This document shows, one piece after another, positions 39,661-39,727 of a DNA stretch of 64,000 bases. How positions within the stretch are numbered: the stretch's first letter is position 1; every line of letters starts with the position of its first letter. Source of the DNA: an uncultured Azospirillum sp. (lineage in GTDB: Bacteria; Pseudomonadota; Alphaproteobacteria; Rickettsiales; UBA3002); the NCBI GenBank assembly GCA_964530085.1, contig CAZGXX010000007.1, forward strand, positions 1,410 to 65,409, given 5' to 3'. The notes under the pieces were generated by a model. It saw nothing but the letters and a program-made list of their open reading frames with translations, had not been told where the DNA came from and searched no databases. Both the position numbers and the translations under genes were made by a program.

Positions 39661-39727
39661 ATCCTACCAGAGAAAGGTTACAGTTTTATGACAGTCGCCT
39701 CTTTTTTCTGTGACAGTTGTGTGACAA
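39661..39727 (-). promoter_or_regulatory. two tandem Pho-box-type direct repeats plus a -10 hexamer, upstream of the 940-aa gene
   Basis: In gene orientation: TTGTCAC-ACAA-CTGTCAC (39727-39710), then 15 nt, then CTGTCAT-AAAA-CTGTAAC (39694-39677), then 10 nt, then TAGGAT (39666-39661). Heptamer starts are offset by 11, 22 and 11 nt. Confidence 0.5.

Follow-up and report, generated by a model that had tools for sequence, protein, structure and literature searches.

The tandem heptamer repeats upstream of a gene for a 940-aa protein very probably form, with the adjoining core promoter elements, a functional activator site and promoter of the OmpR/PhoB type. Their motif identity and geometry make it likely that this element is a PhoB~P-activated, sigma-70 extended -10 promoter of the phosphate-starvation class. 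Four properties speak for PhoB: a half-site of the CTGTCAT type, the four A-rich nucleotides between half-sites, the location of the repeats on the coding strand, and an interval of 10 nt to the -10. The window, i.e., the whole 64,000-nt stretch of DNA that was analyzed, carries the repeats in the divergent control region common to the large gene and ssrA, the latter having been missed in the initial annotation. In the orientation of the large gene (minus strand), the upstream sequence reads TA-TTGTCAC-ACAA-CTGTCAC-AGAAAAAAGAGGCGA-CTGTCAT-AAAA-CTGTAAC-CTTTCTCTGG-TAGGAT-GAAATTATCA-AGGAG-ACTCAC-ATG, with the ATG at 39639. The features of this region and the genes needed to interpret it are as follows.

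39710..39727, minus strand: distal Pho box, composed of TTGTCAC (39727-39721), ACAA, and CTGTCAC (39716-39710); three mismatches to the E. coli Pho-box consensus CTGTCATAWAWCTGTCAY
39677..39694, minus strand: proximal Pho box, CTGTCAT-AAAA-CTGTAAC; one mismatch to the same consensus; sits in the place of a -35 element
39667..39669, minus strand: extended -10 element TGn (TGG), with which the 10-nt spacer ends
39661..39666, minus strand: -10 hexamer TAGGAT, predicted from sequence
39653..39655, minus strand: predicted transcription start, placed by the usual 6-8 nt distance to the -10, giving a leader of ~15 nt
39646..39650, minus strand: Shine-Dalgarno sequence AGGAG, read from sequence
36817..39639, minus strand: target gene, 940 aa; product Ala/Gly-rich, mostly alpha-helical as modeled, with no signal peptide
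39754..40124, plus strand: ssrA, two-piece (permuted) alphaproteobacterial tmRNA with the tag ANDNVALVAA (Rfam RF01849, 208 bits; RF04321, 122.5 bits)
39758..39786, plus strand: ssrA promoter TTGCTA-N17-TATATT, predicted from sequence, inside the 5' end of the Rfam match
40287-40814, plus strand: sspB, directly after ssrA, encoding the adaptor that delivers ssrA-tagged proteins to ClpXP
54115-54858, plus strand: KdpE-like response regulator gene, with no kdp genes nearby

The four CTGTCAT-type heptamers start at 39727, 39716, 39694, and 39683, with offsets of 11, 22, and 11 nt, so that the arrangement given in the initial annotation matches base for base, as does its count of one mismatch between the proximal 18-mer and the E. 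coli consensus. The distal and proximal boxes are separated by the 15 nt of AGAAAAAAGAGGCGA, and the distal box starts 33 bp, or three helical turns, upstream of the proximal one. TAGGAT lies exactly 10 nt past the proximal box, and at a 17-nt spacing the -35 place falls on ATAAAA, which agrees with TTGACA at 3 of 6 positions; the reported lack of a -35 element is therefore correct. The spacer CTTTCTCTGG ends in TGG, an extended -10 TGn element that the initial annotation did not mention. In Pho boxes, including those of rhizobia, two 7-nt CTGTCAT repeats flank an A/T-rich spacer of 4 nt (PMC3131613, PMC4415409), and PhoB sites overlap the -35 position at a strict spacing to the core promoter elements (PMC3348028, PMC10294691). 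The window element agrees with this description. Its 7-nt direct repeats are close to CTGTCAT, with 4 A/T-rich nt between them (11-bp units), and such repeats also occur in 12 further loci. The box lies on the coding strand in the -35 place, 10 nt before the predicted -10, at a spacing that is the same in 13 of 13 loci.

A single box would be weak evidence alone, because a 12/14 match to the heptamer core is expected 0.33 times per 64 kb by composition. A chance resemblance in an AT-richer intergenic stretch, for which this expectation is the argument, can nevertheless be dismissed as practically negligible in probability. Searching the window for CTGTCATAWAWCTGTCAY at up to 3 mismatches returned two matches, both of them the boxes described here, while the shuffled sequences gave a mean of 0.07 matches and never two or more (0/100). 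A composite pattern (box + 7N + TGn + TAnnnT), which was partly derived from these sequences, matched the window once and none of 100 shuffles. Tandem phasing and exact promoter geometry, together with conservation in 12 other loci, thus rule out chance, and the comparison of the 13 diverged loci is by itself enough to refute it.

This comparison covered the window and 12 relatives, whose downstream proteins are 20-45% identical to the window protein and all belong to the same family. One relative, L001, came from a genome collection; it is a metagenome-assembled genome from Lake Mendota, labeled 'Rickettsiales bacterium' by NCBI, and is the nearest named relative. Six loci (L004, L005, L008, L010, L012, and L013) came from metagenomes and were found via the DNA pattern that encodes the tmRNA tag, which 11 loci matched, and L015-L019 were obtained by look-up of family members. 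A protein-alignment search of metagenome contigs for related loci gave no match. The synteny sspB-ssrA / large gene-thyX-UPF0114 is conserved among the relatives, and each of the 13 loci with the large gene has the boxes.

All 13 loci share the layout [YYGTCAY-NAAR-YYGTMAY]-10 nt-TAnnnT-(8-12 nt)-AGGAG-ATG, and the consensus over them is aC.GTCAT.AAACTGTCA......T.TG.TA.G.T. The -10 hexamer begins exactly 10 nt past the box in each of them and is always TAnnnT, mostly TAGGGT. A Shine-Dalgarno sequence of the AGGAG type is likewise found in all 13 (AGGAG in most, AGGAC in L004), and TGn occupies the identical position in 12. The proximal box is the most conserved block of the alignment, with a mean of 1.55 bits per heptamer position. 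TGn and the -10 carry 1.1-1.3 bits, the seven variable spacer bases 0.75, and positions further upstream 0.1-0.6. Information therefore peaks at the heptamers, TGn, and the -10, and the flanking bases are scrambled. The core of the proximal box scores 11-14 of 14 in every locus, and at least 12 in 12 of the 13. The composite pattern, derived as it is from these sequences, occurs once each in 12 loci when L002, a copy of the window region, is included. It is missing from only one of the 12 relatives, L010, because TGn is shifted there by one base.

The region upstream of the proximal box is also patterned. A second box lies 33 bp upstream in the window, L001, L005, and L012, and 32 bp upstream in L010, while in L004, L008, L013, L015, L016, L017, and L019 the heptamers continue in the 11-bp register, as in E. 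coli pstS. The only upstream extra in L018 is a lone TTGTAAC that is out of register. Outside these promoters, a scan for boxes in the 186 kb of fetched loci yielded only two other matches of at least 11/14, one of 12/14 in L010 and one of 11/14 in L015, which fits chance. The L010 match at 10841-10858 (minus strand), ATGTCATGGAAATGTCAT, is a second Pho-like box with a 12/14 core located 49 nt upstream of an ATG with a Shine-Dalgarno sequence. The gene behind it is a hypothetical ORF convergent with sspB, and about one such match is expected by chance in the scanned DNA. A separate observation concerns GANTC, the CcrM methylation motif, which directly follows the Pho box as GAATC or GATTC in 4 of the 13 loci (L010, L012, L017, and L018), the window not being one of them. 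This adjacency could reflect a link to cell-cycle methylation or a coincidence.

The E. coli pstS promoter provides a direct comparison. It was found in 5,423 of 5,426 genomes as CTGTCATAAAACTGTCAT-ATTC-CTTACATATAACTGTCAC-(10 nt)-TATTTT, and the pstS gene begins 43 nt past the 64-mer used as query; TATTTT is the pstS -10 of the classical literature. Promoters of the E. coli pstS/phoA type share with the window element the CTGTCAT 7-nt direct repeats, the 4-nt A/T-rich spacer, the coding-strand orientation, the tandem 11-bp phase, and a box that stands in for the -35, with 10 nt between its end and the -10. Over its first 15 nt, the window proximal box matches the pstS upstream box, CTGTCATAAAACTGT, exactly. 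The class II geometry of a PhoB-type promoter, as proposed in the initial annotation, thus holds for every element that can be read from sequence, is kept in the 13 loci, and is the same in E. coli pstS. There are also differences. The pstS boxes are contiguous, whereas those of the window are 33 bp apart, the contiguous form being present in the relatives L004, L008, L013, and L016. In contrast to pstS/phoA, the -10 is TAGGAT or TAGGGT and carries a conserved TGn extension, the downstream gene codes for a giant protein with no assigned function rather than for a transporter or phosphatase, and the promoter stands back-to-back with that of ssrA. The Pho boxes of Sinorhizobium meliloti and Rhizobium leguminosarum have the same consensus and come from the same bacterial class (Yuan et al. 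2006 in PMC3131613, PMC4415409). The rhizobial boxes were validated by phoB mutants and reporter fusions, whereas the present assignment draws on sequence and conservation in an uncultured lineage. In E. coli, PhoB sites with a good motif can be transcriptionally inert, and such sites are poorly conserved and mostly intragenic (PMC10294691); the window site is unlike them in these respects.

Two further points count against the PhoB reading: the predicted -10 (TAGGAT/TAGGGT) is G-rich and far from TATAAT, and the target has no recognizable link to phosphate metabolism. The repeats might instead be the operator of another OmpR/PhoB-family regulator that responds to a non-phosphate signal and recognizes a CTGTCAT-like half-site, which would entail the same class II mechanism and a different regulon. 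We regard this as unlikely, though it carries some weight. Direct repeats of 11 bp abutting the -10 are common to the OmpR/PhoB family (PMC4415409, PMC11825685). KdpE sites at kdpFABC and the sites of M. tuberculosis PhoP likewise have direct-repeat half-sites about one helical turn apart that adjoin the core promoter. Moreover, no PhoB is visible in the DNA at hand: a check of essentially all ORFs of at least 150 aa in the window revealed no pho or pst genes, which bears out the absence of phoB and phoR stated in the initial annotation, and the target is not a phosphate gene. Against this, the site resembles that of PhoB specifically in its half-site, in its A-rich spacer of 4 nt, and in its 10-nt distance, and the proximal box keeps 11-14 of its 14 core positions everywhere.

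The regulator encoded in the window also argues against this alternative. The KdpE-like gene, placed at 54142 by the initial annotation, is indeed the sole OmpR-family regulator gene in the window, but its proposed role as an alternative binder of the repeats is unlikely in view of its KdpE-type helix. The protein (54115-54858) reaches none of the NCBIfam equivalog cutoffs (PhoB: 158 bits vs 296), has KdpE as its best PDB relatives, and is 33% identical to E. coli PhoB, the reference sequence of which was validated against PDB entries 1B00 and 1GXP. Its recognition helix, YLRVYIGQIREKL, resembles that of KdpE (YLRIYMGHLRQKL) and is unlike that of PhoB (VDVHIRRLRKAL). KdpE sites are AT-rich 6-bp repeats (PMC3264566) and thus differ from the CTGTCAT-type boxes of the window, and this regulator was rejected as their binder. 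A hybrid histidine kinase/response regulator gene (55482-57179, minus strand) adjoins it on the opposite strand.

Extended -10 promoters can function without a -35. It is therefore conceivable that the promoter is constitutive and that the bound regulator represses it, the box occluding the region contacted by RNA polymerase. PhoB can indeed repress depending on the position of its site (PMC10294691). Such repression is nevertheless highly improbable here, since known activated promoters have precisely this geometry, tandem phased upstream boxes are typical of activation, and a -10 this weak and G-rich suggests that the promoter needs an activator. Activation by PhoB~P stays the preferred reading.

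The position of the boxes between two divergent genes raises the question of which gene they serve. The ssrA promoter has the form TTGnnn-N17-TAnATT in 11 of 11 loci that hold the flank (TTGCnn in 10 of 11, TATATT in 8 of 11), and the conserved TTGCnn-N17-TATATT in related loci indicates that it is complete by itself. The same conserved promoter, lying within the 5' end of the Rfam match, ruled out the distal heptamer as the -35 of ssrA. The boxes could still primarily regulate ssrA, or both genes, through a regulator acting at -45 to -115 upstream of the ssrA start. The spacing allows for this: in the window, the first heptamer is 31 bp from the ssrA -35 hexamer, and in 10 of 11 loci the divergent region, taken from the ATG of the large gene to the ssrA -35, measures no more than 86-119 nt. 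However, we consider control primarily of ssrA, or of both genes, very unlikely, as ssrA with its complete conserved promoter needs no activator, and the boxes keep a fixed distance to the -10 of the large gene while their distance to the ssrA -35 varies, with 93 to 326 nt between the ATG and that -35.

Three rearranged settings point the same way. The family gene of L012 is located 3' of ssrA, past its terminator, and the boxes, the 10-nt spacer, the -10 hexamer TAAGGT, and the Shine-Dalgarno sequence have moved along with it across ssrA; a scan of the ssrA 5' flank in this locus found no box. In L004, an insertion of a ~220-nt repeat element parts the ssrA promoter from the boxes and leaves the box-to-gene geometry intact. 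Finally, L009 and L011, which have the identical tmRNA tag and a different 5' neighbor, show no box at the ssrA 5' flank. From these arrangements, we conclude that the boxes belong to the large gene and not to the ssrA promoter, although in the compact arrangement they might have an additional effect on ssrA.

The surroundings of the two genes are largely conserved. The pairing of ssrA with sspB, i.e., of the RNA with the adaptor, is kept in related loci, and a bidirectional terminator hairpin is located at the ssrA end (40118-40149). Past the large gene, the order is thyX, a UPF0114 gene, a methyltransferase gene, an mrp/parA-like gene, hflK/C, and degP. No terminator-like hairpin was detected in the gap between the large gene and thyX (36745-36817; ~70-95 nt), where a weak promoter-like sequence, TTGCCT-N18-TAGATT, is present; the Pho-controlled transcript might extend into thyX and the UPF0114 gene or stop short of them. 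An origin of the large gene in a prophage or island that had integrated at ssrA was considered and rejected, because the gene lies on the 5' side of ssrA, among the housekeeping genes sspB, thyX, mrp, hflKC, and degP, in conserved synteny.

Relatives whose tag is identical differ in the length of ssrA, which ranges between 364 and 500 nt (L001, ~9560-9735; L004, L005, L008, L009, and L013). The extra DNA is in the internal acceptor-coding spacer, which is removed on processing, and resembles inserted repeat elements. GC-rich repeat elements with motifs like GCTCGCCATGG.AGGCTACGCA also adjoin ssrA in L004 (~1935-2190) and in L012 (upstream of ssrA). In L012, positions 1072-1125 (plus strand) match the Rfam whalefall-1 RNA motif at 38.2 bits (gathering threshold 37), with two hairpins; this match, flanked by the ssrA terminator and by the Pho-box promoter in its new place, might represent a REP-like element and not an sRNA. 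The window further contains the genes listed below for two lipid A deacylases, MlaA, MlaC, and a division regulator. This outer-membrane remodeling equipment occurs in a lineage that NCBI labels Rickettsiales and that also encodes malate synthase and MotAB.

28766-29332: lipid A deacylase PagL
59179-60243: lipid A deacylase LpxR
45040-46339: MlaA and MlaC
23635-24654: division regulator MipZ

The initial annotation had called the 940-aa gene an orphan. It does lack any Pfam domain, but it belongs to a rare family and is not a strict orphan: one other cluster was found in a 90% database, and an exhaustive search brought the family to 32 representative clusters, all of 650-1000 aa. When a 26-sequence family alignment was used to look for homologues, only the same two proteins came back, probably because low-complexity sequence swamped the word index. 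The description of the target as something other than a pst or pho gene, with no assignable function, was borne out by searches that gave no Pfam match, no PDB sequence match, and no fold match. The protein is 15% Ala and 12% Gly, and its hydrophobicity profile indicates a C-terminal glycine-zipper hydrophobic segment at residues ~780-822. An AF2 model built from the 26-sequence alignment is mostly helical, with a mean pLDDT of 65.7 and confident blocks at residues ~15-70, 160-310, 350-470, and 600-700. Foldseek comparison of this model with the PDB gave no match below E=0.7; the rows for ClyA/SmhB-like alpha-pore toxin folds were non-significant and were discarded. The PHROG matches to tail lysin/endolysin were also rejected, as they were weak, confined to the Gly-rich segment, and thus compositional.

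If PhoB is the regulator, activation could proceed as follows. Under Pi limitation, PhoR would phosphorylate PhoB, and PhoB~P dimers would bind head-to-tail to both 22-bp Pho boxes (39677-39694 and 39710-39727). Judging from the layout of the site, the promoter-proximal PhoB protomer would stand in for the -35 and recruit sigma-70 region 4 and RNA polymerase, the same recruitment as at E. coli pstS and phoA. RNA polymerase would then use the TGn-extended, G-rich -10 (TGG-TAGGAT). On the same face of the DNA, at a distance of three helical turns, the distal box may add cooperative occupancy. Transcription would start at about 39654, and the ~15-nt leader with its AGGAG would direct translation of the 940-aa protein.

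The regulatory mechanism itself is already textbook. The unusual part is its target, a giant, fast-evolving, unannotated protein, and the placement of a strictly conserved promoter back-to-back with that of ssrA. A more far-reaching proposal, which we put forward as a long shot, is that this giant helical glycine-zipper protein, which may be membrane-active, has been strongly selected in this clade as a dedicated output of the Pi-starvation response, representing a new class of effector (e.g., for envelope remodeling, pore formation, or cell-cell interaction). PhoB~P would then also tune tmRNA/SspB ribosome rescue, because the control region lies back-to-back with the ssrA promoter within at most 120 bp.

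For the grammar of proteobacterial Pho boxes (box, 10 nt, -10), the locus offers a worked example from an uncultured alphaproteobacterial lineage, with the addition of an extended -10. For the family, whose position on the chromosome is fixed and whose promoter is strictly conserved despite quick divergence of the proteins, it provides the first functional handle on a clade-specific group of 650-1000-aa proteins with no domain, fold, or literature annotation. The promoter is the sole functional clue to the large protein, and what it suggests is 'made when phosphate runs out'. Lakes and activated sludge, in which bacteria of this group occur, are settings where P limitation matters, and the transcript should therefore track P status in metatranscriptomes.
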